Position numbers and translations under genes: made by a program. 18,662 nt of DNA from a virus (taxonomy: Duplodnaviria; Heunggongvirae; Uroviricota; Caudoviricetes): positions 1 through 18,662 of the IMG/VR virus record IMGVR_UViG_3300010259_000013; one strand, 5' to 3'. The first letter of the stretch is position 1. The number at the start of each line of letters is the position of its first letter. Below the pieces are notes generated by a model. The model ran no database searches and had not been told where the DNA came from. It was given only the letters and a program-made list of their open reading frames with translations. Below, in pieces: positions 124 through 17,796 of the stretch.

Positions 124-202
124 TAGGGTGTCACCAGTAGGGGCTTTCAACGGTACAATGCGGGTTTGAGCGGCATAAATTACCACTGAAAGCCCTTAAA
201 CG

Positions 203-1216: not shown

Positions 1217-1331
1217 CAGAAAACCCTCCGAGTGGTGTGTTTTTTGGCGACTACTAATCGCTTTTTTCGTGGTGGCTGAAATTTAGCCACCAATAGTAGG
1301 CACTTGTGATGAATATATTCACGATGAATTG

Positions 1332-1631
1332 TTAACCAGTCTTTTGACCGGAGTGGGGCGACGTTGTTTCGTTTTGCCCAAAGTGTGCGAGAGCGGGCGC
1401 AATTTGCCCGGACTCAGGAGCGATCTGATTGGTCATGAACCATAAAGTGTATTTGGTGAATTGTGGGGTCTGCAGGATGTTCATCATGACATCTGTTGGA
1501 GGTGTTGAACGACCACTTTCATAGTAACTCAGCGTGCCATACGGAACCCCTGTTAAATCAGCAAGTTGTTGTCTGCTCAAATACTCTGATTTTCGCATTA
1601 AGACTATCTTCTCGCTTATCGTGTTTGACAT
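1332..1631 (-). CDS. C: Immunity repressor C (P2 C-like), helix-turn-helix
   Basis: 99-aa ORF, same length as P2 C. HTH-like segment QQLADLTGVPYGTLSYYE. Divergent from cox across an operator-bearing intergenic region. Confidence 0.9.
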   Translation of the reverse strand: MSNTISEKIVLMRKSEYLSRQQLADLTGVPYGTLSYYESGRSTPPTDVMMNILQTPQFTKYTLWFMTNQIAPESGQIAPALAHFGQNETTSPHSGQKTG

Positions 1632-1664
1632 GGTGTTTAGATCTCAATAGTATTTAGTTTAGAT
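1625..1664 (+). promoter_or_regulatory. Candidate early promoter Pe (-35 TTGACA 1625-1630, -10 TAGTAT 1648-1653) with two direct-repeat operator half-sites GTTTAGAT (1635-1642, 1657-1664)
   Basis: Hexamers have a 17-bp spacer. The two identical 8-mers are 22 bp centre-to-centre and flank the -10, which fits the P2 C-operator arrangement. Further (G/A)TTTAG copies sit at 1652 and 1672. Confidence 0.6.
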
Positions 1665-1698
1665 GTAGATTGTTTAGTGCTTGGATGTGGGCACTAAA

Positions 1699-1722
1699 AG
1701 GCATTATAAGGCATTAAACGCA
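1699..1722 (-). promoter_or_regulatory. Candidate Pc -10 (TATAAT on minus strand, complement of 1703-1708) and Cox-box-like TTAAACGCA (1714-1722)
   Basis: Perfect -10 hexamer in the right orientation for leftward transcription of C. No convincing -35. TTAAACGCA fits the Cox-box consensus TTAAA(G/C)NCA as I recall it. Confidence 0.4.
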
Positions 1723-1745
1723 ATTCATGAGGGCTGGAGGACGAC

Positions 1746-2021
1746 ATGAGCAAGCAAGTAACACTCATGACTGATGCGATTCCTTATCAGGAGTTCGCAA
1801 AACTAATAGGAAAATCGACAGGAGCGGTTCGTCGGATGATCGATAAAGGAAAGCTGCCTGTAATTGATATGACCGATCCACAATCAGCTTCAGGTCGTGC
1901 AGGTGAATATTGGGTATACCTTCCGGCATGGAATAACGGACTAAAACTGGCTTATGAAAGCCGCCCTAAAGAGATTCGTGACGGCTGGTTGATGTGGTTA
2001 GGTCTCGGTGAACCACGTTAA
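1746..2021 (+). CDS. cox: Cox (excisionase and Pc repressor), P2 Cox-like
   Basis: 91-aa ORF, same length as P2 Cox. ATG at 1746 preceded by GGAGGA. First gene of the early rightward operon opposite C. Confidence 0.9.
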   Translation: MSKQVTLMTDAIPYQEFAKLIGKSTGAVRRMIDKGKLPVIDMTDPQSASGRAGEYWVYLPAWNNGLKLAYESRPKEIRDGWLMWLGLGEPR

Positions 2022-2031
2022 GGAGAACCGT

Positions 2032-2202
2032 ATGAATGAGCCTCGTTGTATTGCTCAGTTACTGCGTAACGAAAGCTCCAGGGCGATTGACTTCACCATC
2101 ACCCACGGTAAGGGGCGTAAGGGAATCATTATCCGCACCAAAAAACAGAGTCCGTTAAAGAAGGCTCTGACCTTTCTGAAAAGCCGGAGGGTATGGAAAT
2201 GA
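2032..2202 (+). CDS. Small basic early protein of unknown function (P2 orf78 position)
   Basis: The ORF-track start at 2008 is GTG. The first ATG is 2032, with AAGGAG six nt upstream. Synteny between cox and B. Confidence 0.6.
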   Translation: MNEPRCIAQLLRNESSRAIDFTITHGKGRKGIIIRTKKQSPLKKALTFLKSRRVWK

Positions 2203-2699
2203 CAGTGATGACGCTCAATCTCGTTGAAAAACAGCCAGCAACTATGCGCCGGATAATTGGTAAGCATCTGGCTGTCCCTCGCTGGCAGGAGACATGCGAT
2301 TATTATAATCAGATGATGGAACGCGAACGGCTAACGGTTTGCTTTCATGCGCAGTTAAAACAGCGTCACGCAACGATGCGTTTTGAAGAAATGAACGACG
2401 TCGAACGTGAACGACTGGTATGTGCAATTGATGAATTGCGCGGGGCATTCTCAAAACGCCGTCAGGTTGGCGCAAGTGAGTATGCATATATTAGTTTTTT
2501 AACAGTCAGTCAGCGTCGCACTTTATTTATGCACGCACGACTGACAGAAAAAGAATTTAACCAGCCATACTGGCGAATTAATGAAGAGTCATGTTACTGG
2601 CGTGATGCTTTATTCCGTGCATTACGTGAATTATTCAGCCTGTTTGAGTATGCACCGACAATTCTGACGTCGGTAAAACCAGAGCAATATCTGCATTAA
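2199..2699 (+). CDS. B: Replication protein B (P2 B-like)
   Basis: ORF 2193-2699. Starting at the third Met (2199) gives 166 aa, equal to P2 B, with GGAGG eight nt upstream. Synteny. Confidence 0.85.
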   Translation: MTVMTLNLVEKQPATMRRIIGKHLAVPRWQETCDYYNQMMERERLTVCFHAQLKQRHATMRFEEMNDVERERLVCAIDELRGAFSKRRQVGASEYAYISFLTVSQRRTLFMHARLTEKEFNQPYWRINEESCYWRDALFRALRELFSLFEYAPTILTSVKPEQYLH

Positions 2700-2720
2700 G
2701 TAATTAACCAGAGTTTTTAA

Positions 2721-2748
2721 CGCACTTAATTGTGCGGGGCTTTTTTTT
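2721..2748 (+). terminator. Candidate intrinsic terminator or attenuator after B (stem CGCAC-TTAATT-GTGCG, then GGGC and a T8 run)
   Basis: Short hairpin followed by eight consecutive T at 2741-2748. The stem is weak; it may allow partial read-through into the downstream early genes. Confidence 0.45.
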
Positions 2749-2762
2749 GCCTGGAGAAAGTC

Positions 2763-2987
2763 ATGCATACAGTTTCTGAAAATCAGTGCGGTAAATACGC
2801 ATTACTGCTGCAACAGGCCAGAACCGAAGCACAGGCCGACGCGGCGACGCGCTTTTCTTCTCATCTTGACGCCATGATTCGCCACATCACAAAGGCGGAG
2901 TTATCCCGCGTGGAGATAGTCGAGCTGCTCAGTCAGGAGTCGGAAAAATTTCACAATATCGGATTGTCTCGCGGGGAGGTACTTTGA
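2763..2987 (+). CDS. Hypothetical early protein (P2 orf80-83 family position)
   Basis: The ORF-track start at 2730 is TTG. The first ATG is 2763, with GGAG six nt upstream. Its stop overlaps the next start (ATGA-type coupling). Confidence 0.6.
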
Positions 2988-3289
2988 TGTCCTGTTCTCA
3001 TTCAGTTGTATTACTGAATAACGCCTTAAAAATCGCCGTTATGAAAAATGGCGATTTGTCTCTTATTCAACTTTGTCTTGATAAAGAAAAACGCGACATA
3101 ACTGAATCTGTTATCGCGATTTATCAGAATGAATTAAACCTCCTGTCTGATGTGGTCAATTTACTTGTTAAACGCGCTGTATTCCACAAGCAAATTTCCT
3201 CAGTGGATGAACTGACACAATTAACGACAGAAATCGCCAGCTATTGCGCTGATGAATTTAAGAAACTGAACGACAAAAGGAGCTGGTAA
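2987..3289 (+). CDS. Hypothetical early protein
   Basis: ATG at 2987 overlaps the upstream TGA; the stop overlaps the next ATG (TAATG). Synteny with the P2 early operon. Confidence 0.6.
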   Translation: MSCSHSVVLLNNALKIAVMKNGDLSLIQLCLDKEKRDITESVIAIYQNELNLLSDVVNLLVKRAVFHKQISSVDELTQLTTEIASYCADEFKKLNDKRSW

Positions 3290-3513
3290 TGCCGGACAAC
3301 GTGGATTTTATTCAGGAACAACAGGCTGAATTACTGGAGCGCCAGATTAACGCGGCAAGGGTAAAACATTATGGTGCTTCTGCGCTGGTTTGCGAAGAGT
3401 GTGATGCGCCAATACCTGCTGCCCGTCGTGCGGCTTATCCGTCAGCCACGAGTTGTGTTTCCTGTCAGTCAGTCTTTGAAGCAAAAAACAAACATTACCG
3501 GAGAACGGCATGA
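3289..3513 (+). CDS. TraR/DksA-family C4 zinc-finger protein
   Basis: 74 aa with CEEC ... CVSC (CxxC-x16-CxxC). AAAGGAG lies upstream. Translationally coupled to its neighbours. Confidence 0.7.
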   Translation: MPDNVDFIQEQQAELLERQINAARVKHYGASALVCEECDAPIPAARRAAYPSATSCVSCQSVFEAKNKHYRRTA

Positions 3514-3785
3514 GTATTCGTATTGAAATTGGCGAACGTTATGTCGTTACCAGTGACAGCTTTCAGTTTATTCTCCACGAGAAAAAGAGAGCGGAAAGCG
3601 GTAAAAACGCCGGTCAGGAATGGCTGGCGGTGGTTGGTTATTACCCGAAATTAAGTCAGCTCGTTTCCGGCCTGATGCATCACGATATTCTGACCGGAAG
3701 CGCAAAATCTTTTGCCGATTTAAACGCGCAGGTTGAGCAACTCAGCAGGCGTTGTTCAGAGGCTTTTGGCTCATATGGCCGTTAA
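3510..3785 (+). CDS. Hypothetical early protein immediately upstream of A
   Basis: 91-aa ORF. Start overlaps the upstream stop (ATGA); the 3' end overlaps the A start. Confidence 0.6.
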   Translation: MSIRIEIGERYVVTSDSFQFILHEKKRAESGKNAGQEWLAVVGYYPKLSQLVSGLMHHDILTGSAKSFADLNAQVEQLSRRCSEAFGSYGR

Positions 3786-6060
3786 AGCCTCCGGGCGTTT
3801 TGTCCCTCCGTCAGCATTTGCTGCAGGCACCGGTAAGGCGTTTACCGGTGCTTATGCATGGAACGCGCCACGCGAGGCTGTCGGGCGCGAAAGACCCCTT
3901 ACACGTGACGAGATGCGTCAGGTGCAAGGTGTTTTATCCACGATTAACCGCCTGCCTTACTTTTTGCGCTCGCTGTTTACGTCACGCTATGACTACATCC
4001 GGCGCAATAAAAGCCCGGTGCACGGGTTTTATTTCCTCACATCCACTTTTCAGCGTCGTTTATGGCCGCGCATTGAGCGTGTGAATCAGCGCCATGAAAT
4101 GAACACCGACGCGTCGATGCTGTTTCTGGCTGAGCGTGACCACTATGCGCGCCTGCCGGGGATGAATGACAAGGAGCTGAAAAAGTTTGCCGCCCGTATC
4201 TCATCGCAGCTTTTCATGATGTATGAGGAACTCTGCGATGCATGGGTTGATGCACATGGCGAGAAAGAATCGCTGTTTACGGATGAGGCGCAGGCGCATC
4301 TGTATGGTCATGTTGCTGGCGCTGCACGTGCTTTCAATATTTCCCCGCTCTACTGGAAAAAATACCGTAAAGGACAGATGACCACGAGGCAGGCATATTC
4401 TGCCATTGCCCGTCTGTTTAACGATGAGTGGTGGACTCATCAGCTTAAAGGCCAGCGTATGCGCTGGCATGAGGCGTTACTGATTGCTGTCGGGGAGGTC
4501 AATAAAGACCGTTCTCCTTATGCCAGTAAACATGCCATTCGTGATGTGCGTGCACGCCGCCAGGCAAATCTGGAATTTCTTAAATCGTGTGACCTCGAAA
4601 ACAGGGAAACCGGCGAGCGCATCGACCTTATCAGTAAGGTGATGGGCAGTATTTCTAATCCTGAAATTCGCCGGATGGAGCTGATGAACACCATCGCCGG
4701 TATTGAGCGTTACGCCGCCGCAGAGGGTGATGTGGGGATGTTTATCACGCTGACCGCGCCGTCAAAGTATCACCCGACACGTCAGGTCGGAAAAGGCGAA
4801 AGTAAAACCGTCCAGCTAAATCACGGCTGGAATGATGAGGCATTTAATCCAAAGGATGCGCAGCGTTATCTCTGCCGTATCTGGAGCCTGATGCGCACGG
4901 CATTCAAGGATAATGATTTACAGGTCTACGGTTTGCGAGTCGTCGAGCCACACCACGACGGAACGCCGCACTGGCATATGATGCTTTTTTGTAATCCACG
5001 CCAGCGTAACCAGATTATCGAAATCATGCGTCGCTATGCGCTCAAAGAGGATGGTGACGAAAGAGGAGCCGCGCGAAACCGTTTTCAGGCAAAACACCTT
5101 AACCGGGGCGGTGCTGCGGGATATATCGCGAAATACATCTCAAAAAACATCGATGGCTATGCACTGGATGGTCAGCTCGATAACGATACCGGCAGGCCGC
5201 TGAAAGACACCGCAGCGGCTGTTACCGCATGGGCGTCAACGTGGCGCATCCCGCAATTTAAAACGGTTGGCCTGCCGACAATGGGGGCTTACCGTGAACT
5301 ACGCAAATTGCCTCGCGGCGTCAGCATTGCTGATGAGTTTGACGAGCGCGTCGAGGCTGCACGCGCCGCCGCAGACAGTGGTGATTTTGCGTTGTATATC
5401 AGCGCGCAGGGCGGGGCAAATGTCCCGCGCGATTGTCAGACTGTCAGGGTCGCCCGTAGCCCGTCGGATGAAGTTAACGAGTACGAGGAAGAAGTCGAGA
5501 GAGTGGTCGGCATTTACGCGCCGCATCTCGGCGCGCGTCATATTCATATCACCAGAACGACGGACTGGCGCATTGTGCCGAAAGTTCCGGTCGTTGAGCC
5601 TTTGACTTTAAAAAGCGGCATCGCCGCGCCTCGGAGTCCTGTCAATAACTGTGGAAAACTCACCGGTGGTGATACTTCGTTACCGGCTCCCACACCTTCA
5701 GAGCACGCCGCAGCAGTGCTTAATCTGGTTGATGACGGTGTTATCGAATGGAATGACCAGGAGGTCGTGAAGGCGCTAAGGGGCGCATTAAAACACGGAC
5801 TGAGAACACCAAATCGTCAGCAAAGAGCCGGAAGCCCGTTAAAACCGCATGAAATAGCGCCATCGGCCAGAATGACCCGGTCGGAACGAATGCAAATTAC
5901 CCGTATCCGCGTTGACCTTGCTCAGAACGGTATCAGGCCGCAGCGATGGGTGCTTGAGGCGCTGGCGCGTGGCGCGACCGTAAATTATGACGGGAAAAAA
6001 TTCACGTATCCGGTCGCTGATGAGTGGCCGGGATTCTCAACAGTAATGGAGTGGAAATGA
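3775..6060 (+). CDS. A: Replication initiation protein A, rolling-circle HUH endonuclease (P2 A-like)
   Basis: ORF 3733-6060. Starting at ATG 3775 (MAVKASGRF...) gives 761 aa, matching P2 A. HUH-type motif PHWHMMLF and paired tyrosines YIAKYISK. In P2 the ori lies inside this gene; I could not place it from sequence. Confidence 0.92.
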   Translation: MAVKASGRFVPPSAFAAGTGKAFTGAYAWNAPREAVGRERPLTRDEMRQVQGVLSTINRLPYFLRSLFTSRYDYIRRNKSPVHGFYFLTSTFQRRLWPRIERVNQRHEMNTDASMLFLAERDHYARLPGMNDKELKKFAARISSQLFMMYEELCDAWVDAHGEKESLFTDEAQAHLYGHVAGAARAFNISPLYWKKYRKGQMTTRQAYSAIARLFNDEWWTHQLKGQRMRWHEALLIAVGEVNKDRSPYASKHAIRDVRARRQANLEFLKSCDLENRETGERIDLISKVMGSISNPEIRRMELMNTIAGIERYAAAEGDVGMFITLTAPSKYHPTRQVGKGESKTVQLNHGWNDEAFNPKDAQRYLCRIWSLMRTAFKDNDLQVYGLRVVEPHHDGTPHWHMMLFCNPRQRNQIIEIMRRYALKEDGDERGAARNRFQAKHLNRGGAAGYIAKYISKNIDGYALDGQLDNDTGRPLKDTAAAVTAWASTWRIPQFKTVGLPTMGAYRELRKLPRGVSIADEFDERVEAARAAADSGDFALYISAQGGANVPRDCQTVRVARSPSDEVNEYEEEVERVVGIYAPHLGARHIHITRTTDWRIVPKVPVVEPLTLKSGIAAPRSPVNNCGKLTGGDTSLPAPTPSEHAAAVLNLVDDGVIEWNDQEVVKALRGALKHGLRTPNRQQRAGSPLKPHEIAPSARMTRSERMQITRIRVDLAQNGIRPQRWVLEALARGATVNYDGKKFTYPVADEWPGFSTVMEWK

Positions 6061-6512
6061 TGGCAAAAATTCACGAGGTAAAGCTGCACGCAAAATATTT
6101 TGACCTTGTGCTGGAAGGAAAGAAACGCGCAGAGTTTCGGAAAAATGACCGTAATTATGAGCGCGGGGACACGTTGATTTTGCATGAATGGGTGCAGGGT
6201 GTGTTTACGGGGCGAAAGGTTGAAGCCCGGATAACAGATGTTACTGACCTGTCAGACTGGCTGGAAGATTATGTCTTGCTAAGTATTGAGCTGCTTAATA
6301 CGGGCGCATATAAGATTGTGAACTGGAAAGAACTTAGTGAGCGTGGCCTGGTATTCAGAATTAATCATGAAATTATGCATCAGCTCGGCCTTGCTGTTAT
6401 GTATGAACCAGAGACGGGGATGTCTGGCGGGGCAATGGTTGCCACGGATGGAGTATGGATCTATTCAGATGAACAGATGGAGCGTGCACAGCAAAACGGG
6501 TGGCTCGGATAA
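6057..6512 (+). CDS. DUF3850/ASCH-like protein
   Basis: Tandem ATGs at 6057 and 6060 overlap the A stop. The N-terminal segment IHEVKLHAKYFDLVLEGKKRAEFRKNDRNYERGDTL resembles the DUF3850 signature. Confidence 0.65.
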   Translation: MMAKIHEVKLHAKYFDLVLEGKKRAEFRKNDRNYERGDTLILHEWVQGVFTGRKVEARITDVTDLSDWLEDYVLLSIELLNTGAYKIVNWKELSERGLVFRINHEIMHQLGLAVMYEPETGMSGGAMVATDGVWIYSDEQMERAQQNGWLG

Positions 6513-6566
6513 TGCACAGAATACCAGGCGAGATACCGCACCATAAAAACTAAAAATATCAAGCTG

Positions 6567-6725
6567 ATGGCCATTGTTCACCGTCTACAGCAGATTATGG
6601 TCAACGAAAATCTGACGCCCGATGAACTAGTCGGGTGTGCCGAAATAGTCCGGGATAATTACGGGCGACTTAACTATATCGGTATCGGTCAGTCCAGAGT
6701 TGCGCCACCACCACGCAGACGATAG
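6567..6725 (+). CDS. Possible small ORF (52 aa), weak
   Basis: ATG at 6567 to TAG at 6723-6725; the stop sits five bp before palindromic element copy 1. No clear Shine-Dalgarno. Below the ORF-track size cutoff. Confidence 0.2.
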   Translation: MAIVHRLQQIMVNENLTPDELVGCAEIVRDNYGRLNYIGIGQSRVAPPPRRR

Positions 6726-6729
6726 AGAA

Positions 6730-6796
6730 CGCCGCCAGTCGTGAAACTTGTTTTCAGGGCTGGCGGCGTTGAACAACGAGCGAAGCGAGGCGTTAG
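6730..6796. repeat. Palindromic element copy 1: ~17-bp imperfect hairpin (CGCCGCCAG...CTGGCGGCG) plus conserved 28-bp tail ending GAGGCGTTAG
   Basis: Seen in sequence. Stem 6730-6768 with inner arm TGAAAC/GTTTTCA. About 80% identical to copy 2 over ~67 bp. Confidence 0.8.
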
Positions 6797-6954
6797 TTGA
6801 CAGTCATATTTTTACTGCGTTGGTGCTGGTTTTTGACGGTTGAAAGGAGTTAGCCCGGAGAGCAAAAGCCAACAACTTACAAATATTCAAAAGTAAGCTT
6901 CCTGTTGCTAACATAAGGTCGATTTTTTATGTGGATGATGCAAAAAGGATAGCT

Positions 6955-7686
6955 ATGGATATTGTAATCGCTTTTCTATCACTCGCTTTTTTCGTTGCTT
7001 TTTTCATCGGGTTAATCAAGCCATCACTGGTGCGGATGCCAAACCGTAAACGTGCAAGTGCGGTTTATCTCGGAGGTAGTTTTGCATTGAGCATAATTGG
7101 TTCAATACTCTACCCAACAGAAAAAAGCCAGCCAGTTGCTAAAACTGAAACAGCAACCGTAGCAGAACACCAGGCTCAAAAAACATTCGAATATACTGAA
7201 AAAACACTCAAGGAATATCGGAACGAGCCAAAGAAGACTCGACACGATATTGTGAATAGTTACATTAACTTTAAGAAAGTGCCAGTCACCGCATCAGATG
7301 CATTTTATGCCTGCATGAGTGAGTATACATTTACCAAAGATGATGAGTTGAAACTCGGTGATGTTCTTGGGTGGTGCTTTAATGATTATGAAAATGACCC
7401 GAATTCATTAAACAATAAAATCAATCTTGATACATTTCAGAGTAATTTTAGTGGTTGGGATGGTTCTTATCGGCCATTGGAAAAATTAATTAAAGATAAT
7501 ATGAACGATGATTCATCTTATAAACATGTGTCAACGGTATATCATTTGGTTTTGAATAAAGACCCGCACGCCATTGTGAAAACCACGTTTCGCGGCACTA
7601 ATGCTTATGGTGGAGTGGTAAAGCAGACCGTAGCGGCGCGCGTCAACGTGCGAACGGGGGAGGTCGATTCGATACTCGACAATTAA
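6955..7686 (+). CDS. Membrane-anchored cargo protein 1 (two predicted N-terminal TM helices, ~180-aa soluble C-terminal domain), unknown function
   Basis: The ORF-track start at 6931 is GTG. The first ATG is 6955, with AAAGGA five nt upstream. Hydrophobic stretches IVIAFLSLAFFVAFFIGLI and AVYLGGSFALSIIGSILY. AT-rich codon usage unlike the backbone. Confidence 0.7.
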   Translation: MDIVIAFLSLAFFVAFFIGLIKPSLVRMPNRKRASAVYLGGSFALSIIGSILYPTEKSQPVAKTETATVAEHQAQKTFEYTEKTLKEYRNEPKKTRHDIVNSYINFKKVPVTASDAFYACMSEYTFTKDDELKLGDVLGWCFNDYENDPNSLNNKINLDTFQSNFSGWDGSYRPLEKLIKDNMNDDSSYKHVSTVYHLVLNKDPHAIVKTTFRGTNAYGGVVKQTVAARVNVRTGEVDSILDN

Positions 7687-7702
7687 ACAATATAGTGACA
7701 TA

Positions 7703-7769
7703 CCCCGCCAGTACTGAAACTTGTTTTCAGTGCTGGCGGGGTTAAACAAAGAGCATCGTGAGGCGTTAG
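7703..7769. repeat. Palindromic element copy 2: near-perfect 39-bp palindrome (CCCCGCCAGTACTGAAAC-ttg-GTTTTCAGTGCTGGCGGGG) plus conserved tail ending GAGGCGTTAG
   Basis: Seen in sequence. 17-bp stem with one G-T wobble. Sits 16 bp after the stop of cargo protein 1 and 25 bp before the start of cargo protein 2. Confidence 0.8.
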
Positions 7770-7794
7770 ATTAAAATCATTTGAGGCAGATAAA

Positions 7795-8457
7795 ATGCTT
7801 TGGAAAATAATTTCTTTTTTATTAGTTGGTATTTGTATGTTTGCTTTCGGTTTATGGTTAGGCTCTATTCAGGCTGAATGGGCGAAACCAGAGCATAAAG
7901 ATGCTGTTGCTTATTTAGCAATGATCGGAGGATGGGTCTCAGGAATTGCAACGTCAGTCGCAGTAATTATTTCATTGTATGCGACATACCAAGCATCACA
8001 GAATAATGTTGAAAAATTAAGTTTAACCTATAAGCCTTACTCTAGCGTAGACAAAGAAAATTATTGTGCCAATATTGAGGTTGTAAATTTGCGGAGCGTT
8101 CCGGTACATATACAAGAGTTTTGCTTAGAATTTAGTGGGATAAATAATCATTTCAACATAAACGAACTAAAAGCAAATGGGAAGGAGATCCCGTATTCTT
8201 TATACCAAGTAGGAGAGAAATGGGAGTTTGCCTTCTATCCTTTTGCAAAGCCGGGAAATATGAGGTTCTATAAAAGCTTAAGTGAGAATGGTAATCCAAG
8301 TTTTCGTAGTGGTTTCTTTGTGGTTAAAACATCAATGAAACAATACAAATTAAGGATGCCTAATGAGCTTTTGGAAATTATGAAAATTAGCTATGAAAAG
8401 CAAATGGAAATACGGAAGAATTATAAGGAAATGCATGGTAAAGAGATGGGCTTTTAA
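7795..8457 (+). CDS. Membrane-anchored cargo protein 2 (two predicted N-terminal TM helices, ~150-aa soluble C-terminal domain), unknown function
   Basis: ATG at 7795 with GAGG eight nt upstream. Hydrophobic stretches IISFLLVGICMFAFGLWLG and AVAYLAMIGGWVSGIATSVAVIISLYA. AT-rich. Confidence 0.7.
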   Translation: MLWKIISFLLVGICMFAFGLWLGSIQAEWAKPEHKDAVAYLAMIGGWVSGIATSVAVIISLYATYQASQNNVEKLSLTYKPYSSVDKENYCANIEVVNLRSVPVHIQEFCLEFSGINNHFNINELKANGKEIPYSLYQVGEKWEFAFYPFAKPGNMRFYKSLSENGNPSFRSGFFVVKTSMKQYKLRMPNELLEIMKISYEKQMEIRKNYKEMHGKEMGF

Positions 8458-8580
8458 AACGCATTAACAAGCATCAAATTGCATGCGCATCCCTCCCCTG
8501 TTGTGTTTGAGCGCTGCCAGTGATGGTGTGCCTCTGGCGTGTTCGTGCAACTGCATTAAAACCGCCCCATGAAGCGGGCG

Positions 8581-8599
8581 GGCGAGGCGGGGAAAGCAT
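8581..8599. other. cos cohesive-end site (P2/186 type)
   Basis: GGCGAGGCGGGGAAAGCAT matches the 19-nt P2/186 cohesive end as I recall it (the P2 last base may be C). It sits in a GC-rich, backbone-like block upstream of the Q/P packaging genes. Confidence 0.7.
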
Positions 8600-8676
8600 T
8601 GCGCTGGACCTAGAGGCTTTGCTATCTTATTTGATGTTATTGGTATTTATTCAATTGAATGACCGTAGAGGATGAA

Positions 8677-9273
8677 ATGTGTCACATTGAAATTTTTCGG
8701 GAAGCACTAACAGTAAAGGATCCTATATATATATACAGGAAGTATCTTTTAGGGCATGACGTGTGGTATTTTAGAAATAAATTGGGAAAATTAAATTATG
8801 CAGAGGTTTATGATGATCTTAAGATACTTATGTCAGAAAGATTAGGTGTTCACATTAATAATGTTGCTATTGTTGGAAGTGCGAAGTTAGGATTTAGCAT
8901 AACACCCACAGAAGATAAAGCCTTTAGAGAGTTTAACGAAGATAGTGATATTGATATTGTTGTCGTATCCCCTGAGCTTTTTAGAAAGTCTTGGGATGCA
9001 TATCTTGATGTGGCAAAAAGACAAAGAATACCTTATTACTATAAAATCACAAGCAATATATTTAGAAAGTTTGTATCCTTAAAGAATATTGATTATAATA
9101 ATGAATTCTTTCGAGATTGGAAAAACAAAATAGAACCTTGTCAAAAAGATTTGCAGGTTATATATGAAGTACCGAACGAGATTAACTATAGAATATATGA
9201 GTCTTGGGAGGATGTGGAACGCTATCATGTTCAAGGCTTAGAAAAACTTAAAAACTTAATGGGGCAAATTTAA
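8677..9273 (+). CDS. Putative minimal nucleotidyltransferase (Pol-beta-superfamily-like) cargo protein
   Basis: ORF 8659-9273. The better start is ATG 8677 (AGAGGA upstream), giving 198 aa. Candidate NTase motif hhGS...DxD: VAIVGSAKLG (8875-8892) and DSDIDIVVV (8941-8958), with a longer-than-usual insert between. AT-rich. Stop is one nt before the next ATG. Confidence 0.55.
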   Translation: MCHIEIFREALTVKDPIYIYRKYLLGHDVWYFRNKLGKLNYAEVYDDLKILMSERLGVHINNVAIVGSAKLGFSITPTEDKAFREFNEDSDIDIVVVSPELFRKSWDAYLDVAKRQRIPYYYKITSNIFRKFVSLKNIDYNNEFFRDWKNKIEPCQKDLQVIYEVPNEINYRIYESWEDVERYHVQGLEKLKNLMGQI

Positions 9274-9274
9274 A

Positions 9275-10336
9275 ATGAGTATTGTGAGAAACGTTAAAGT
9301 TGAAAGCAGAGATATAAAGTGGGTATCTGATAATTTTAAGTCAGGCGAGTTGGTTATTGATAATTCATTTCAAAGGCGATATGTTTGGGTTAAAAAAGAT
9401 AAAGTATCGTTAATTGAATCAATACTCCTCGGTTATCCTATTCCTGAAGTTTATCTGTGGCAAAATAAGACCGATCCTGAAACAGGGCAGAGAATTCATT
9501 CTATTGTTGATGGGCAGCAACGATTAGGTGCGGTTTTTGATTTTGTAACAGATAAGTTTGCATTAGAAAAACGTTATCTAGAATATAAGGATTCTGATTT
9601 TTCTGGAAAAAAATTTTCTGAATTAGATACAGAACAAAAAGCTGTTATCTGGGGATATGATTTTTCAATTCGATTTATTAATAATGATATAACTATTGAT
9701 GACATTAAAAATTTATTTCTTCGTCTTAATAGAACTAATATAACTCTTAACCCTCAAGAGTTAAGGAATGCGGAATTTAATGGTGAGTTTATTAAATTGG
9801 CGAGCTCTTTGTCGGAACATCAATTTTGGACAGAGTTCAAGGTGTTCAACTCATCTGACTTGAGACGAATGCTTGATATCCAGTTTATTAGTACTATGTT
9901 AATATTTATTAGAATGGGTATTGCTGAAGAAACATCCCAGGCGGCTATTAACAAAGTTTATGATCAATATAATGAAACGTATCCAGAGGCTGAACAAGAT
10001 AAAGAGTTGTTCATGGATTTGCTAAATCTGCTTGCTAATATGATAAGGGGTAAGCAATCTCTTGAATATATTGCAAAAAGAAAAACACACCTCTATACAT
10101 TATTTACATTGTCTTTTTACTTATTTAAAACTGGTATTGATTCTGATAGTGGGTACCAAAATGTAGCTGTAAAATTGGATGAGTGGTTTAATAATTATAT
10201 AAATGAGGTGGATTTTGATGATGAGATGGTTAACGTTTTATTAAATGAATATCGTACGCTTTCCCAAGAAGGCGTGCAGAAAAAGCAAAATAGGCAACGG
10301 AGACTGGATATTTTGAAGGGTTATATAACCATGTAA
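9275..10336 (+). CDS. DUF262 / ParB-like (GmrS-like NTPase fold) protein lacking a recognisable DUF1524/HNH nuclease domain
   Basis: 353 aa. N-terminal FQRRYVW and the hallmark DGQQR motif (9508-9522) of the DUF262 family. No His-Me/HNH motif seen in the C-terminal ~150 aa. Translationally coupled to the upstream NTase-like gene. Confidence 0.75.
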   Translation: MSIVRNVKVESRDIKWVSDNFKSGELVIDNSFQRRYVWVKKDKVSLIESILLGYPIPEVYLWQNKTDPETGQRIHSIVDGQQRLGAVFDFVTDKFALEKRYLEYKDSDFSGKKFSELDTEQKAVIWGYDFSIRFINNDITIDDIKNLFLRLNRTNITLNPQELRNAEFNGEFIKLASSLSEHQFWTEFKVFNSSDLRRMLDIQFISTMLIFIRMGIAEETSQAAINKVYDQYNETYPEAEQDKELFMDLLNLLANMIRGKQSLEYIAKRKTHLYTLFTLSFYLFKTGIDSDSGYQNVAVKLDEWFNNYINEVDFDDEMVNVLLNEYRTLSQEGVQKKQNRQRRLDILKGYITM

Positions 10337-10340
10337 TTAT

Positions 10341-10367
10341 CCCCCCCCCCTAGTATTTAGGAGGGGG
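10341..10367. repeat. C10 homopolymer (10341-10350) facing a GGAGGGGG run (10360-10367); potential C/G stem-loop just 3' of the DUF262 gene
   Basis: Seen in sequence, four bp after the DUF262 stop. Could form a GC stem with an A/T-rich loop. No T-tract follows. Confidence 0.5.
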
Positions 10368-10445
10368 CATGGCTTATTGGCTAAAGTTTTTCAGGTTTAT
10401 TTATTGAACTTGAGAATATACTTATAATTAAACAAGAGGATTATG

Positions 10446-10469
10446 AATAAAAAGCCGCCCGCAGGCGGC
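10446..10469 (-). terminator. Intrinsic terminator for the leftward Q-P late operon
   Basis: On the minus strand: stem GCCGCC-tgcg-GGCGGC (plus 10454-10469) followed by TTTTTATT (plus 10446-10453), five bp after the Q stop. Confidence 0.7.
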
Positions 10470-10474
10470 GATGT

Positions 10475-11509
10475 TCAGCCGTTGTCAGTGTCCAGTGAGT
10501 AGTTTTTAAATCGGATGACCTCCTGACCGAGCCAGCCGTTTATCTCGCGGATCCTGTCCTGTAACGGGATAAGCTCATTGCGGACAAAGACCTTTGCCAC
10601 TTTCTCAATATCACCCAGCGACCCGACGTTCTCCGGCTTGCCACCCATCAACTGAAAGGGGATGCGGTGTGCGTCCAGCAGGTCAGCGGCGCTGGCTTTT
10701 TTGATATTAAAAAAATCGTCCTTCGTTGCCACTTCACTGAGGGGGATAATTTTAATGCCGTCGGCTTTCCCCTGCGGGGCATAGAGAAACAGATTTTTAA
10801 AGTTATTGCGGCCTTTCGACTTAACCATGTTTTCGCGGAGCATTTCGATATCGTTGCGATCCTGCACGGCATCAGTGACGTACATGATATATCCGGCATG
10901 CGCGCCGTTTTCGTAATACTTGCGGCGGAACAGCGTGGCTGATTCATTCAGCCAGGCAGAGTTAAGGGCGCTGAGATATTCCGGCAGACCGTACAGCTCC
11001 TGATTAATATCCGGCTCCAGCAGGTGAAACACGGAGCCGGGCGCGAAAGGTGTCGGCTCGTTGAAGGACGGCACCCACCAGTAAACATCCTCCTCCACGC
11101 CACGGCGGGTATATTTTGCCGGTGAGGTTTCCAGTCTGATGACCTTACCGGTGGTGCTGTAACGCTTTTCCAGAAACGCATTACCGAATACCAGAAAATC
11201 CAGCACAAAGCGGCTGAAATCCTGCTGAGAAAGCCACGGGTGTGGGATAAACGTTGAGGCCAGAATATTACGTTTGACGTAAATCGGTGAGCTGTGATGC
11301 ACGGCAGCACGCAGGCTTTTTGCCAGACCGGTAAAGCTGACCGGTGGCTCATACCATCTGCCGTTACTGATGCACTCGACGTAATCCAGAATGTCACGGC
11401 GGTCGAGTACCGGCACCGGCTCACCAAAGGTGAATGCCTCCATTTTCGGGGCGCTGGCGGTCATTTTTTTTGCCGCAGGTTGCGGTGTTTTCCCTTTTTT
11501 CTTGCTCAT
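10475..11509 (-). CDS. Q: Portal protein (P2 Q-like)
   Basis: 344-aa ORF, same length as P2 Q. Its ATG overlaps the P stop (ATGA). Synteny Q-P divergent from O-N-M-L. Confidence 0.92.
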   Translation of the reverse strand: MSKKKGKTPQPAAKKMTASAPKMEAFTFGEPVPVLDRRDILDYVECISNGRWYEPPVSFTGLAKSLRAAVHHSSPIYVKRNILASTFIPHPWLSQQDFSRFVLDFLVFGNAFLEKRYSTTGKVIRLETSPAKYTRRGVEEDVYWWVPSFNEPTPFAPGSVFHLLEPDINQELYGLPEYLSALNSAWLNESATLFRRKYYENGAHAGYIMYVTDAVQDRNDIEMLRENMVKSKGRNNFKNLFLYAPQGKADGIKIIPLSEVATKDDFFNIKKASAADLLDAHRIPFQLMGGKPENVGSLGDIEKVAKVFVRNELIPLQDRIREINGWLGQEVIRFKNYSLDTDNG

Positions 11510-13281
11510 CAGTAAAACTCCAGAATGGTGGATGTCAGCGGGGTGCTGATACCGGCGGTGAGTGGCTCATTTAACAGGGCGTGCATGGTCGCCCAGGCGA
11601 GGTCGGCGTGGCTGGCTTCCTCGCTACGGCTGGCCTCATAGGTGGCGCTGCGTCCGCTGCTGGTCATGGTCTTGCGGATAGCCATAAACGAGCTGGTGAT
11701 GTCGGTGGCGCTGACGTCATATTCCAGACAGCCACGGCGGATGACGTCTTTTGCCTTGAGCACCATTGCGGTTTTCATTTCCGGCGTGTAGCGGATATCG
11801 CGCGCGGCGGGATAGAACGAGCGCACGAGCTGGAACACGCCGACACCGAGGCCGGTGGCATCAATTCCGATGTATTCGACGTTGTATTTTTCGGTGAGTT
11901 TGCGGATGGATTCCGCCTGAGTGGCAAAGTCCATGCCTTTCCACTGGTGACGCTCAAGTATTCTGAATTTACCTCCGGCCACCACCGGCGGTGCCAGCAC
12001 CACGCATCCGGCGCTGTCGCCACGGTGTGACGGGTCGTAACCAATCCATACCGGGCGGGAGCCGAACGGATTGGCGGCAAACGGCGCATAGTCTTCCCAT
12101 TCTTCCAGCGTGTCGACCATGCAGCGTTGCAGCTCCTCGAACGGGAACACCGACGCCTTGTCGTCAACAAATTCACACATGAACAGGTTTTTAAAATCGT
12201 CGGCGCTGTTTTCACGTTTGAGCTGCTCAATGTCGAACAGCGTGCAGCCACCTTTCAGGGCGTCCTCAATGGTGACAATCTGCCGCCACTGGCCGTCCGC
12301 ACAGAGAAGCCCCCCGGCAAGGGCGTTATGACTGACGTCGATTTCCACGCGTTCGGCGGCGCTGGCGCGTCCCCGGTTGAACAGTTCACCCGACCAGAAT
12401 GGGTAGGCGTCGTGCGCCAGCGTGGACGGGGTGGAGAAATAGGTCGAGCGCAGGTGGCTCTGTGAGGCCATACCTGATGCCACCTTACGCAGTACCTGAA
12501 AATTCGGGATCCAGAAAATCTCGTCGACGTACAGGTCGCCGTTATGGCTCTGTGCGGTGTTGGAGTTGGTGCCGAGAAAAATCAGTTTTGCGCCGTTATT
12601 GCCCAGGACAATCGGGTCACCGGTCAGGTCAACGTCAACCAGCCGGGCAAAGGCGATGATGTATTCGCGGAACACATACGCCTGCGTTTTACTGGCCGAC
12701 AGAAAAATCTGGTTATGACCGGTTTTCAGGGCGCGCAGCAGCGCCTCGCGGGAAAAATAAAACGTCGCGCCAATCTGGCGGGATTTCAGGATATCGCGGA
12801 TGCGGTGCTCAAGCCCGGCGCGATACCAGTGCAACTGATAGTCGAAAGACTGCTCAAAGAAAATCTGCTCCAGCTTTTCGATGGCCTCGTCACTGAAAAA
12901 ATTCTTTTTCGGTTTGCGCCGCCCGCCTTTGTTGCGGTTAGCGACGTTCGGATTAAGGTCTGCCTCGTTGCCGGTCTGGCTGTAGCGGTTGACCCGTGCC
13001 AGTCGTTCAATCTGGCGTCCCAGCAGGTCAATTTCCTTGAAGTCACTGCCGGTTTTCTGCGGTTTGATGATGAGCTGGGTCAGCCGCGCTTCCAGGCTCA
13101 TTTCCACACGGCTGATGGGGGCAACACTGTCCCAGCCGTCGCGCTGTTTCCAGCTCTGCACCGTCGGGCGTTTCATCTGCAACATGGCGGCAATCTGCGG
13201 CACGGAAAACCCCTGCCAGTACAGCAGCGCCGCCTGACGACGCGGGTCGTGTAAAAGAGTGGTGTCTGTGGTGATGGTCAT
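11509..13281 (-). CDS. P: Terminase large (ATPase) subunit (P2 P-like)
   Basis: The ORF-track start at 13311 is TTG. The first ATG is 13281 (MTITTDTTLL...), giving 590 aa, matching P2 P. Confidence 0.92.
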   Translation of the reverse strand: MTITTDTTLLHDPRRQAALLYWQGFSVPQIAAMLQMKRPTVQSWKQRDGWDSVAPISRVEMSLEARLTQLIIKPQKTGSDFKEIDLLGRQIERLARVNRYSQTGNEADLNPNVANRNKGGRRKPKKNFFSDEAIEKLEQIFFEQSFDYQLHWYRAGLEHRIRDILKSRQIGATFYFSREALLRALKTGHNQIFLSASKTQAYVFREYIIAFARLVDVDLTGDPIVLGNNGAKLIFLGTNSNTAQSHNGDLYVDEIFWIPNFQVLRKVASGMASQSHLRSTYFSTPSTLAHDAYPFWSGELFNRGRASAAERVEIDVSHNALAGGLLCADGQWRQIVTIEDALKGGCTLFDIEQLKRENSADDFKNLFMCEFVDDKASVFPFEELQRCMVDTLEEWEDYAPFAANPFGSRPVWIGYDPSHRGDSAGCVVLAPPVVAGGKFRILERHQWKGMDFATQAESIRKLTEKYNVEYIGIDATGLGVGVFQLVRSFYPAARDIRYTPEMKTAMVLKAKDVIRRGCLEYDVSATDITSSFMAIRKTMTSSGRSATYEASRSEEASHADLAWATMHALLNEPLTAGISTPLTSTILEFY

Positions 13282-13454
13282 GAATACCTCGCCGTGATGA
13301 ATACACGGCAAGGCTACTGAGTCGCGCCCCGCGATTCGCTAAGGTGCTGTTGTGTCAGTGATAAGCCATCCGGGACTGATGGCGGAGGATGCGCATCGTC
13401 GGGAAACTGATGCCGACATGTGACTCCTCTAATCACTATTCAGGACTCCTGACA
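13282..13454. promoter_or_regulatory. Divergent late-promoter region (PP leftward, PO rightward), presumably Ogr-activated
   Basis: 173-bp intergenic region between divergent P and O. One partial Ogr-like TGT-N12-CCA element at 13351-13368. Hexamers could not be assigned confidently. Confidence 0.45.
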
Positions 13455-14309
13455 ATGGCAAAAAAAGTCTCAAAATTCTTTCGTATCGGCGTTGAGGGTG
13501 ACACCTGTGACGGGCGTGTCATCAGTGCGCAGGATATTCAGGAAATGGCCGAAACCTTTGACCCGCGAGTCTATGGTTGCCGCATTAACCTGGAACATCT
13601 ACGCGGCATTTTGCCTGACGGTATTTTTAAGCGTTATGGCGATGTGGCCGAACTGAAGGCCGAAAAGATTGACGATGATTCGGCGCTGAAAGGCAAATGG
13701 GCGCTGTTTGCGAAAATCACCCCGACCGATGACCTTATCGCGATGAACAAGGCCGCGCAGAAGGTCTACACCTCAATGGAAATTCAGCCGAACTTTGCCA
13801 ATACCGGCAAATGTTATCTGGTGGGGCTGGCCGTCACCGATGACCCGGCAAGCCTCGGCACGGAATACCTGGAATTCTGCCGCACGGCAAAACACAACCC
13901 CCTGAACCGCTTCAAATTAAGCCCTGAAAACCTGATTTCAGTGGCAACGCCTGTTGAGCTGGAATTTGAAGACCTGCCTGAAACCGTGTTCACCGCCCTG
14001 ACCGAAAAGGTGAAATCCATTTTTGGCCGCAAACAGGCCAGCGATGACGCCCGTCTGAATGATGTGCATGAAGCGGTGACCGCTGTTGCTGAACATGTGC
14101 AGGAAAAACTGAGCGCCACTGAGCAGCGCCTCGCTGAGATGGAAACCGCCTTTTCCGCACTTAAGCAGGATGTGACTGACAGGGCGGATGAAACCAGCCA
14201 GGCATTCACCCGCCTGAAAAACAGTCTTGACCACACCGAAAGTCTGACCCAGCAGCGCCGCAGCAAGGCCACCGGTGGTGGCGGTGACGCCCTGATGACG
14301 AACTGCTGA
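13455..14309 (+). CDS. O: Capsid scaffolding protein (P2 O-like)
   Basis: ORF 13389-14309. ATG at 13455 (MAKKVSKFF...) gives 284 aa, matching P2 O. Confidence 0.9.
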   Translation: MAKKVSKFFRIGVEGDTCDGRVISAQDIQEMAETFDPRVYGCRINLEHLRGILPDGIFKRYGDVAELKAEKIDDDSALKGKWALFAKITPTDDLIAMNKAAQKVYTSMEIQPNFANTGKCYLVGLAVTDDPASLGTEYLEFCRTAKHNPLNRFKLSPENLISVATPVELEFEDLPETVFTALTEKVKSIFGRKQASDDARLNDVHEAVTAVAEHVQEKLSATEQRLAEMETAFSALKQDVTDRADETSQAFTRLKNSLDHTESLTQQRRSKATGGGGDALMTNC

Positions 14310-14367
14310 CCGGCGTCAGTCAGTCCGGGAAAACCTTCACGATTAACCCTTAATTTCAGGAAAAACT

Positions 14368-15441
14368 ATGCGCCAGGAAACCCGCTTTAAATTTAATGCC
14401 TACCTGTCCCGTGTTGCCGAACTGAACGGCATCGACGCCGGTGATGTGTCGAAAAAATTCACCGTTGAACCGTCGGTCACCCAGACCCTGATGAACACCA
14501 TGCAGGAGTCCTCTGACTTTCTGACCCGCATCAACATTGTGCCGGTCAGCGAAATGAAAGGGGAAAAAATTGGCATCGGTGTCACCGGCTCCATTGCCAG
14601 CACCACCGACACCGCCGGTGGCACCGAGCGTCAGCCGAAGGACTTCTCGAAGCTGGCGTCAAACAAGTACGAATGCGACCAGATTAACTTCGATTTTTAT
14701 ATCCGCTACAAAACGCTTGACCTGTGGGCGCGTTATCAGGATTTCCAGCTCCGTGTCCGTAACGCCATTATCAAACGCCAGTCCCTTGATTTCATCATGG
14801 CCGGTTTTAACGGCGTGAAGCGTGCCGAAACCTCTGACCGCAGCAGCAATCCGATGCTGCAGGATGTGGCGGTCGGCTGGCTGCAGAAATACCGCAATGA
14901 AGCCCCGGCGCGCGTGATGAGTAAGGTCACTGACGAGGAAGGCCGCACCACCTCTGAGGTTATCCGCGTGGGTAAGGGCGGTGATTATGCCAGCCTTGAT
15001 GCACTGGTGATGGATGCGACCAACAACCTGATTGAGCCGTGGTATCAGGAAGACCCTGACCTTGTGGTGATTGTGGGGCGTCAGTTACTGGCGGACAAGT
15101 ATTTCCCCATCGTTAACAAGGAGCAGGACAACAGCGAAATGCTGGCCGCTGACGTCATCATCAGCCAGAAACGCATCGGTAACCTGCCGGCGGTACGCGT
15201 CCCGTACTTCCCGGCGGATGCGATGCTCATCACGAAGCTGGAAAACCTGTCCATCTACTACATGGATGACAGCCATCGCCGAGTGATTGTGGAAAACCCG
15301 AAACTCGACCGCGTGGAGAACTACGAGTCAATGAACATTGATTACGTGGTGGAAGACTACGCCGCCGGTTGTCTGGTGGAAAAAATTAAGGTCGGTGATT
15401 TCTCCACACCGGCTAAAGCGACCGCAGAGCCGGGAGCGTAA
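14368..15441 (+). CDS. N: Major capsid protein (P2 N-like)
   Basis: 357-aa ORF, same length as P2 N. Synteny O-N-M-L. Confidence 0.92.
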   Translation: MRQETRFKFNAYLSRVAELNGIDAGDVSKKFTVEPSVTQTLMNTMQESSDFLTRINIVPVSEMKGEKIGIGVTGSIASTTDTAGGTERQPKDFSKLASNKYECDQINFDFYIRYKTLDLWARYQDFQLRVRNAIIKRQSLDFIMAGFNGVKRAETSDRSSNPMLQDVAVGWLQKYRNEAPARVMSKVTDEEGRTTSEVIRVGKGGDYASLDALVMDATNNLIEPWYQEDPDLVVIVGRQLLADKYFPIVNKEQDNSEMLAADVIISQKRIGNLPAVRVPYFPADAMLITKLENLSIYYMDDSHRRVIVENPKLDRVENYESMNIDYVVEDYAAGCLVEKIKVGDFSTPAKATAEPGA

Positions 15442-15444
15442 CCG

Positions 15445-16188
15445 ATGACGAGTCCCGCACAGCGCCACATGATGCGGGTCTCGGCAGCGATAACCGCGCA
15501 GCGGGAAGCCGCCCCGCTGCGACATGCAACTGTCTATGAGCAGATGCTGGTTAAGCTCGCCGCAGACCAGCGCACACTGAAAGCGATTTATTCAAAAGAG
15601 CTGAAGGCCGCGAAAAAACGCGAACTGCTGCCGTTCTGGTTGCCGTGGGTGAACGGCGTGCTGGAGCAGGGCAAAGGTGCACAGGATGACATTCTGATGA
15701 CGGTCATGCTGTGGCGTCTGGATACCGGCGATATTGCCGGTGCGCTGGAGATTGCCCGTTATGCCCTGAAGTACGGTCTGACCATGCCGGGTAAACACTG
15801 CCGCACCCCGCCGTACATGTTCACCGAGGAAGTGGCGCTTGCGGCCATGCGCGCTCACGCTGCCGGTGAGTCTGTGGATCCCCGCCTGCTGATGGACACC
15901 CTCGAACTGACCGCCACGGCTGACATGCCTGATGAAGTGCGCGCAAAGCTGCACAAAATCACCGGTCTGTTTCTGCGTGACGCTGGTAATGCCGCAGGGG
16001 CGCTGGCACACCTGCAACGTGCGACACAGCTCGACTGTCAGGCAGGCGTCAAAAAAGAGATTGAACGACTGGAGCGGGAGCTGAAACCGAAGCCGGAGCC
16101 GCAGCCCAAAGCGGCCACCCGCGCCCCGCGTAAGACCCGGAGCGTGACACCGGCAAAACGTGGACGCCCGAAAAAGAAAGCCAGTTAA
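15445..16188 (+). CDS. M: Terminase small/endonuclease subunit (P2 M-like)
   Basis: 247-aa ORF, same length as P2 M. Synteny. Confidence 0.9.
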   Translation: MTSPAQRHMMRVSAAITAQREAAPLRHATVYEQMLVKLAADQRTLKAIYSKELKAAKKRELLPFWLPWVNGVLEQGKGAQDDILMTVMLWRLDTGDIAGALEIARYALKYGLTMPGKHCRTPPYMFTEEVALAAMRAHAAGESVDPRLLMDTLELTATADMPDEVRAKLHKITGLFLRDAGNAAGALAHLQRATQLDCQAGVKKEIERLERELKPKPEPQPKAATRAPRKTRSVTPAKRGRPKKKAS

Positions 16189-16287
16189 CAACCGAATGCG
16201 CCCCGCGCCAGGGCGGCACGCCGGTCAGTGAGGGTGAATCACCTGACACTGCACCGGCGTCCACCGCCCGACTTTTCAGAGGTAGTC

Positions 16288-16797
16288 ATGATGACGCTGA
16301 TTATTCCGCGAAAGGAGGCTCCCGTGTCCGGTGAGGGTACGGTGGTCATCCCGCAACCGGCAGGCGACGAGCCGGTGATTAAAAACACGTTCTTTTTTCC
16401 CGATATCGACCCGAAGCGCGTCCGGGAACGTATGCGCCTTGAGCAGACCGTCGCCCCCGCCCGTCTGCGTGAGGCCATCAAGTCAGGCATGGCAGAGACG
16501 AATGCGGAGCTGTACGAGTACCGCGAACAGAAAATTGCCGCCGGTTTTACGCGTCTGGCGGACGTCCCGGCGGACGACATCGACGGTGAAAGCATCAAGG
16601 TTTTTTACTACGAGCGCGCCGTGTGTGCGATGGCGACCGCGTCGCTTTATGAGCGTTACCGCGGCGTGGATGCCAGTGCGAAAGGCGACAAGAAGGCCGA
16701 CAGCATTGACAGCACCATTGATGAGCTGTGGCGGGATATGCGCTGGGCGGTGGCGCGTATCCAGGACAAGCCGCGCTGCATCGTGAGTCAAATCTGA
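16288..16797 (+). CDS. L: Head completion/stabilisation protein (P2 L-like)
   Basis: ORF 16228-16797. ATG at 16288 (GAGG upstream) gives 169 aa, matching P2 L. Confidence 0.88.
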   Translation: MMTLIIPRKEAPVSGEGTVVIPQPAGDEPVIKNTFFFPDIDPKRVRERMRLEQTVAPARLREAIKSGMAETNAELYEYREQKIAAGFTRLADVPADDIDGESIKVFYYERAVCAMATASLYERYRGVDASAKGDKKADSIDSTIDELWRDMRWAVARIQDKPRCIVSQI

Positions 16798-17000
16798 TGA
16801 AGACCTTTGCGCTACAGGGCGACACGCTCGACGCCATCTGTGTCCGGTATTACGGGCGCACTGAGGGCGTGGTCGAAGCCGTGCTCGCCGCAAATCCGGG
16901 ACTGGCTGAACTGGGTGCGGTGCTGCCACACGGCACCGCCGTCGAACTGCCCGACGTTCAGACCGCGCCCGTGGCTGAAACTGTCAATCTGTGGGAGTAA
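16797..17000 (+). CDS. X: Tail protein X (P2 X-like)
   Basis: ATG at 16797 overlaps the L stop, giving 67 aa (MKTFALQGDTLDAICVRYYG...), matching P2 X. Confidence 0.85.
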   Translation: MKTFALQGDTLDAICVRYYGRTEGVVEAVLAANPGLAELGAVLPHGTAVELPDVQTAPVAETVNLWE

Positions 17001-17003
17001 CGC

Positions 17004-17782: not shown

Positions 17783-17796
17783 ACGGAGTAAACACC

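Follow-up and report, generated by a model that had tools for sequence, protein, structure and literature searches.

Proteins of the DUF262 family function as sensors or switches in the systems characterised or surveyed, the effector being separate (PMC12065111, PMC10952713, bioRxiv 10.1101/2022.08.27.505566). In GmrSD, BrxU, SspE, Menshen, PD-T4-2 and Dazbog, the DUF262 component senses DNA modification and controls its effector through the turnover of nucleoside triphosphates (NTPs). NsnA-like proteins combine a ParB-like NTPase sensor with a DNA-binding domain (Li et al., PMC12065111), PD-T4-2 is composed of a DUF262 protein and a HEPN protein (PMC10952713), and Dazbog relies on abortive infection in response to DNA cytosine methylation (bioRxiv 10.1101/2022.08.27.505566). 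Here, we describe a two-gene locus in which a DUF262 protein is coupled to a protein resembling nucleotidyltransferases (NTases). It lies in IMG/VR virus record IMGVR_UViG_3300010259_000013, positions 1 to 18,662, the whole 18,662-nucleotide stretch of DNA being referred to below as the window (all features are on its plus strand unless stated otherwise). The first gene (8677–9273) encodes the 198-residue NTase-like protein under study, and the second (9275–10336) a 353-residue DUF262 (ParB-like NTPase) protein. We read the former as a very divergent minimal NTase-fold protein of the Pol-beta/MNT type, encoded as the first subunit within a conserved DUF262 cassette of two genes, and give this reading, taken as a whole, about even chances.

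The association between the two genes is near-obligate, a point missed by the first-pass annotation of the window, which had dealt with the NTase-like gene. A single nucleotide separates the NTase-like stop codon from the start of the DUF262 gene. Among the 74 species-level loci having enough downstream sequence, which come from many phyla, 71 display an adjacent downstream open reading frame (ORF) with an exact DGQQR motif, 319–504 residues long (343–430 for most of them). The three exceptions correspond to a partner located 3 kb away, an in-frame deletion fusing both genes and one solitary copy. In each lineage inspected individually, the NTase-like gene precedes the DUF262 gene, the overlap or gap between them amounting to a few nucleotides. 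The pair was retrieved from P2-like and lambdoid prophages of Escherichia coli, from the tail region of an Enterobacter P2-like element, from Lactococcus and from gut Firmicutes, while the Flavobacterium and Brevibacillus pairs adjoin Type I restriction–modification (R-M) genes.

The identity of the partner is supported by matches to Pfam GmrSD_N (3.5e-22), to PADLOC NsnA over residues 7–343 (2.8e-40) and to PADLOC PD-T4-2_A (5.9e-18), and its motifs are intact in the translation: QRRYVW (QRxxxW), DGQQR and FLRLN (FxxxN). The PADLOC ‘Type II restriction enzyme’ model also matches DUF262 proteins weakly (9.6e-8, 2.7e-9). Neither the partner nor the NTase-like protein displayed a nuclease domain in Pfam, PADLOC or NCBIfam.

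Two rearranged copies were also encountered. In a deltaproteobacterial metagenome-assembled genome (locus L025, 4983–5594), the NTase-like frame continues without a shift from NYRIY into the last approximately 30 residues of DUF262 (…SQEGVQKKANRQRRFDILKEYILL); this is a decayed copy, in which a deletion took almost the whole DUF262 partner, and its neighbour is an apparent Type I specificity-subunit gene, judged by eye. A 392-residue database protein (P0232) joins the N-terminal approximately 150 NTase-like residues, which include GS and DxD but lack the C-terminal half of the NTase-like family, to a DUF262 part with DGQQR; a fusion or deletion that arose naturally and an artefact of assembly are the two possible origins.

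The ORF itself is a real gene. Two candidate starts exist for the frame ending at 9273, ATG 8659 (204 residues) and ATG 8677 (198 residues). The latter is preferred because a Shine–Dalgarno-like AGAGGA (8667–8672) is read directly in the sequence 4 nt upstream of it, because the N-termini of homologues agree with this start and because an identical 198-residue protein (P0001) is present in the database; sequence inspection revealed no comparable Shine–Dalgarno upstream of ATG 8659. The boundaries 8677–9273 proposed at first pass thus hold. A promoter scan 5' of the gene yielded no site above background.

Comparison with the described DUF262 systems first concerns Menshen. The partner resembles NsnA along its full length, i.e. 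a ParB-DUF262 domain followed by a ParBDB DNA-binding domain, with QRxxxW, DGxQR and FxxxN. Menshen (NsnABC) was nevertheless rejected, as neither an NsnB ABC ATPase nor an NsnC nuclease follows and the NTase-like gene precedes instead; no ABC ATPase was found in the other individually inspected loci either, and the Menshen survey mentions no NTase partner (PMC12065111). PD-T4-2 (DUF262 plus HEPN) and Dazbog are likewise two-gene systems, made of a nuclease-less DUF262 protein and one other protein. In the first case, PD-T4-2_A does match the partner, but the second protein is NTase-like, without a HEPN or PD-T4-2_B match; in the second, the gene order is reversed here and PADLOC gives no Dazbog match, so that both were set aside. 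GmrSD, BrxU and SspE share with the locus a DUF262 NTPase sensor domain, a helical DNA-binding middle domain and a defence-island context. A Type IV restriction system of the GmrSD type was discarded, since only GmrSD_N was found and neither protein carries the DUF1524 His-Me nuclease. A HEPN-MNT module was also rejected, because the adjacent gene belongs to DUF262/GmrSD_N and has no HEPN match, and WonAB and GrwAB proved unrelated when considered as descriptions of the system. PADLOC 2.0 does not call the cassette as a system, and no description of a DUF262 plus NTase system was found in the openly readable literature (including the Menshen, P2-hotspot, WASA Vibrio and R-M review papers). The locus is apparently an undescribed candidate DUF262-sensor defence cassette with a new type of partner.

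The resemblance to NTases lies in two short motifs. An hG[GS] motif (IVGS, residues 64–68) occupies the turn after strand 1, where G67-S68 (8875–8880) would form an NTP-binding turn, and a [DE]h[DE]h acidic pair (D91-I-D93-I, the DID being encoded at 8947–8955) opens the second strand (residues 92–97) and may bind metal. Scripted motif placement puts exactly 22 residues between G67-S68 and D91-I-D93, AKLGFSITPTEDKAFREFNEDS (8881–8946), i.e. the very string that had been delimited at first pass as a gap of about 22 residues. The description of this spacer as atypically long also stands: it spans 20–31 residues in a 36-member alignment and 18–35 residues in 79 species-level loci, always outside the canonical range of 9–13. 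G67, S90, D91 and D93 are invariant (100%) across 318 non-identical members, S68 and S74 reaching 99% each; because these GS and DxD positions and S90 are near-invariant, a chance GS…DxD pattern is ruled out. The spacer itself is constrained (K70 92%, G72 93%, S74 99%, P77 94%, F86 96%, S90 100%). Given a length of 18–35 residues and conserved positions throughout the family, the alignments indicate that the long spacer is a conserved, family-defining insertion rather than a quirk of this copy. Outside these motifs, W106 and Y183 are each 97% conserved, and a strand-and-turn motif, NYRIYESW (N170–W177, 9184–9207; R172 94%, Y174 92%, W177 86%), is a signature of the family without a canonical NTase counterpart.

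We consider homology to the Pol-beta/MNT fold likely, mainly because two invariant motifs fall in the right structural elements and because of the result of a loop excision. For the latter, the inserted-loop idea was examined by deleting residues 74–87 and rescoring the protein against Pfam NTP_transf_2. The excised window protein reaches 25.3 bits (E 2e-5), thereby passing the curated cutoff of 21 bits only after this artificial deletion, and its alignment covers profile positions 10–79 with both GS and DxD included; three of the eight excised members passed the same cutoff. Without excision, weak matches to NTP_transf_2 were obtained for 15 of 36 members and to Polbeta for six, any other Pfam family matching at most four. 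AlphaFold2 models of the window protein (predicted local distance difference test 95.8) and of a family member from a different clade, with 35% identity (94.1), share one order of elements: a long helix, strand 1, GS, a short helix, an extended loop, strand 2 with DxD, then two helices, strand 3, a helix, strand 4 (NYRIY) and a helix. In the window protein, the strands 63–66, 92–97 and 169–174 and the short helix 68–71 are thus modelled. Both models, structure prediction having been suggested at first pass, match the minimal-NTase order up to strand 3, and the top 15 Foldseek matches in PDB are all Pol-beta NTases.

Several results weigh against this reading. The native protein scores 20.1–20.2 bits (E 8e-4) with NTP_transf_2, below the cutoff, and aligns from the DxD region onward only. 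The Foldseek search against PDB, also proposed at first pass, returned no significant match (E ≥ 0.15 for the top 15 cited above), and PDB sequence searches with the family profile, whether or not the loop was included, retrieved only noise. When aligned with hhalign to three MNT segments rebuilt from PDB alignments (no canonical MNT gene being present inside 100 fetched family loci to build an independent profile), the native family reached a low probability of 30%, over the SDIDIVVV strand, and the loop-excised family 15%, though both motifs then align with their counterparts, GS with GS and DxD with DxD. The third catalytic acidic residue, whose search had been recommended at first pass, is not conserved in the 318 members: aspartate plus glutamate nowhere exceed 32% over residues 132–137 (strand 3 and the three residues after it) and amount to 0–1% on strand 169–174, the best acidic candidate elsewhere being E178 (75%). 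Neither NCBIfam nor PADLOC gives the protein a functional label, PADLOC yielding no match at E ≤ 1, and a tblastn search with it against 50,697 phage records returned nothing. Every homology measure to NTases is marginal, both the NTP/metal site and its catalytic activity are putative, and an anti-phage activity, an interaction between the two proteins and the identity of the effector are matters of inference here. Finally, MNT proteins, the nearest structural analogues, regulate their partner by AMPylating it, and by analogy this would rather fit the opposite direction of control.

These signals could be due to chance, the protein being a generic alpha/beta domain in which GS and DxD serve metal-dependent hydrolysis, or the binding of the partner or of DNA. 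We hold this explanation for rather unlikely: the uniformly marginal scores speak for it, whereas the motif positions and the loop excision favour a divergent NTase with an inserted loop, which was one of the two options left by the first-pass annotation, the other being a false call. As the spacing of 9–13 residues and the third acid of classical NTases were not found and the score lies just under the Pfam threshold, the protein is called NTase-like and is not filed as a member of the superfamily. Compared with the MNT of HEPN-MNT modules (PDB 1no5 HI0073, 1wot, 2rff, 5yep MntA), it differs by its spacer (approx. 10 residues in the former versus 18–35 with conserved residues of its own), by an additional segment of three helices at the N-terminus and by long helices at the C-terminus, which double its size to approximately 200 residues, and by the absence of a conserved third carboxylate, with a sequence significance that is marginal.

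The family is large and without annotation. A word-indexed search identified 186 homologues of approximately 200 residues in Gammaproteobacteria, Bacteroidota and Bacilli, none of which has a precomputed Pfam domain. An exhaustive profile search retrieved 1,570 representatives of protein clusters (clustered at 50% identity) at E ≤ 1e-3, and 908 at E ≤ 1e-10, and a scan of one genome per species detected a member in 139 genomes from many phyla.

As for its function, an anti-phage role of the cassette is in our opinion probable. The direction of control, from sensor to effector, and the chemistry involved are proposed with somewhat less than even confidence. Since DUF262 is the sensor elsewhere and the NTase-like protein is the only other conserved component, the latter is proposed as the output enzyme. 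The DUF262 protein would read the modification state of DNA, and its binding and hydrolysis of NTP would license the NTase-like subunit on non-self DNA. The atypical two-carboxylate GS/DxD site, possibly helped by K70 and R172, would then use Mg-NTP to nucleotidylate a nucleic-acid or protein target, which could block the invader or arrest the infected cell. Where a methyltransferase is present, it would mark and protect the host DNA.

The main rival of this proposal reverses the control: the NTase-like protein would be a regulator similar to MNT antitoxins, AMPylating or sequestering a DUF262 protein that is toxic through its NTPase activity, through NTP/dNTP depletion or through a cryptic nuclease. 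MNT proteins act on a partner protein in HEPN-MNT modules, and MNT antitoxins are indeed the nearest structural and sequence analogues. The operon, with a small NTase first, a larger partner second and translational coupling, resembles antitoxin–toxin operons, and the weak PADLOC ‘Type II restriction enzyme’ match of the partner would agree with a toxic DUF262. However, the reviewed systems assign to DUF262 the role of a sensor or NTPase switch and not a killing activity, the partner is not HEPN and has no recognisable nuclease, and no conserved acceptor residue was identified. We judge this reversed control rather unlikely.

Pol-beta-type NTases such as the MenT/AbiEii toxins, CD-NTases and HalB serve as effectors or signal makers in toxin–antitoxin and defence systems, and no sequence or structural match of the NTase-like protein to these three groups was detected. 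It is very unlikely in our view that the protein makes a nucleotide signal or polymer, in the manner of CD-NTases, mCpol or Hailong HalB, to be read by the DUF262 pocket. This model finds little support, even if the minimal MNT NTase profile also reaches HalB in PDB, showing that small NTases are so used in defence, and DUF262 possesses a nucleotide-binding DGQQR pocket (PMC12065111).

Part of the family is associated with a third gene. In 26 of 80 species loci, mostly from Bacillota and other gut or rumen anaerobes, the pair is preceded by a tightly coupled C5 methyltransferase gene of the Dcm type, which ends between −8 and +9 nt from the NTase-like start; the first-pass annotation had missed this coupling too. 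The methyltransferase matches TIGR00675 (2.9e-45) and PADLOC MTase_II (8e-140), Pfam DNA_methylase being on record, and is absent from the window cassette as well as from the other Proteobacteria and Flavobacteria loci. Methyltransferase and pair together form an R-M-like three-gene operon without a recognisable nuclease. The likeness to a Type II R-M system with a Dcm-type enzyme resides in the coupled upstream methyltransferase, whereas no nuclease fold can be recognised on the ‘R’ side and the E. coli cassette of the window has no methyltransferase at all.

From our preferred direction of control, in which DUF262 senses and the NTase-like protein acts, a more specific view can be derived, which we put forward as tentative and on balance somewhat unlikely. 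The pair would be the restricting half of a nuclease-free, R-M-like immunity: DUF262 would spot unmarked or otherwise foreign DNA and switch on the two-carboxylate NTase, which would stop the infection by nucleotidylating DNA ends, tRNA or protein, and not by cutting DNA. The ‘otherwise foreign’ variant would apply to methyltransferase-less versions such as the window cassette.

Two observations were made on the methyltransferases themselves. Across loci L048, L052–L076, L080 and L097, all 25 short coupled methyltransferases carry GGPPCPDFS and not the usual PCQ catalytic motif IV, and these GGPPCPDFS enzymes match the PADLOC DruM/DruM2 model at 3.6e-131; they represent one coherent lineage travelling with the cassette. 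A larger version exists in Flammeovirga (L093, 2736–7081), where the methyltransferase is a 737-residue enzyme of the PCQ type, the NTase-like spacer is 35 residues long and the DUF262 protein, of 504 residues, has an additional C-terminal region.

If the proposed scheme is true, the family, detected in at least 139 species genomes and in 1,570 clusters of proteins (50% identity), would represent a widespread new type of effector for DUF262 sensors, besides the His-Me nuclease, HEPN and BECR RNase. The cassette would offer a compact two-gene model, in an E. coli P2 hotspot, of how ParB-like NTPase sensors inform a separate enzyme. As to the clade with a coupled methyltransferase, it would be R-M-like without a recognisable nuclease, and some ‘orphan’ or incomplete R-M loci of gut anaerobes could be complete in another way. 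For NTase enzymology, the family would illustrate that the remaining active-site residues can stay strictly conserved despite a conserved insertion of 10–20 residues between GS and DxD and the loss of the third carboxylate.

The window corresponds to a P2-like prophage. Replication gene A is followed there by an ASCH/DUF3850 gene, by two hypothetical genes and by the pair, after which come the genes for portal, terminase, scaffold and capsid. The sequence GGCGAGGCGGGGAAAGCA, which we take to be the P2 cohesive-end sequence, occurs as an exact single match at 8581–8598 (0 expected in 200 shuffles), and this P2-type cos core forms the left edge of a low-GC cargo cassette of 1,843 bp (8605–10447) carrying both genes. 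Its place between cos and the portal terminator is taken by 135 bp in NZ_CP082824.1, the complete P2-like prophage of E. coli closest to this one, with which blastn aligned the window at 3112–8604 and 10448–14311 only. The GC content is 31–39% in the cassette versus 51–62% in the phage backbone. At the right edge, the terminator scan placed a terminator-like hairpin at 10454–10469 on the minus strand, 3' of portal gene Q, which is the next gene 3' of DUF262 and lies on the opposite strand. The region between gpA and gpQ of P2-like phages is a hotspot of anti-phage defence (Rousset et al., PMC9122126), and the cassette, located between cos and gpQ, falls within it.

The same two-gene cassette was found at other prophage positions, with proteins 49–52% identical (L018/L019/L024, 5001–6637; L007–L009, 5001–6646). 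It lies between tail genes S and V in the Enterobacter P2-like element, and near replication genes, with flanking insertion sequence elements, in an apparent lambdoid E. coli prophage; the cassette behaves as a mobile cargo module. Inside the window copy, 11 consecutive C residues come right after the DUF262 stop codon (10340–10351), possibly a slippage-prone tract or a recombination scar.

Across cos from the pair, two hypothetical genes occupy the old/tin position of P2: the first (6931–7686) matches phrog_3403 at 4.6e-145, and the second (7795–8457), whose N-terminal hydrophobic stretches resemble transmembrane helices, matches phrog_16957 at 6.5e-70. In a megablast search of 6900–10450 against 5,426 complete E. 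coli genomes, 1,592 genomes were matched, the best 15 all being confined to 6900–8604; among these 15, only the left-hand neighbours were recovered, and not the pair. These two genes may be separate hotspot cargo. Further upstream, the ASCH/DUF3850-domain gene (6024–6512; Pfam matches on record) overlaps the end of replication gene A and is conserved in related prophages.
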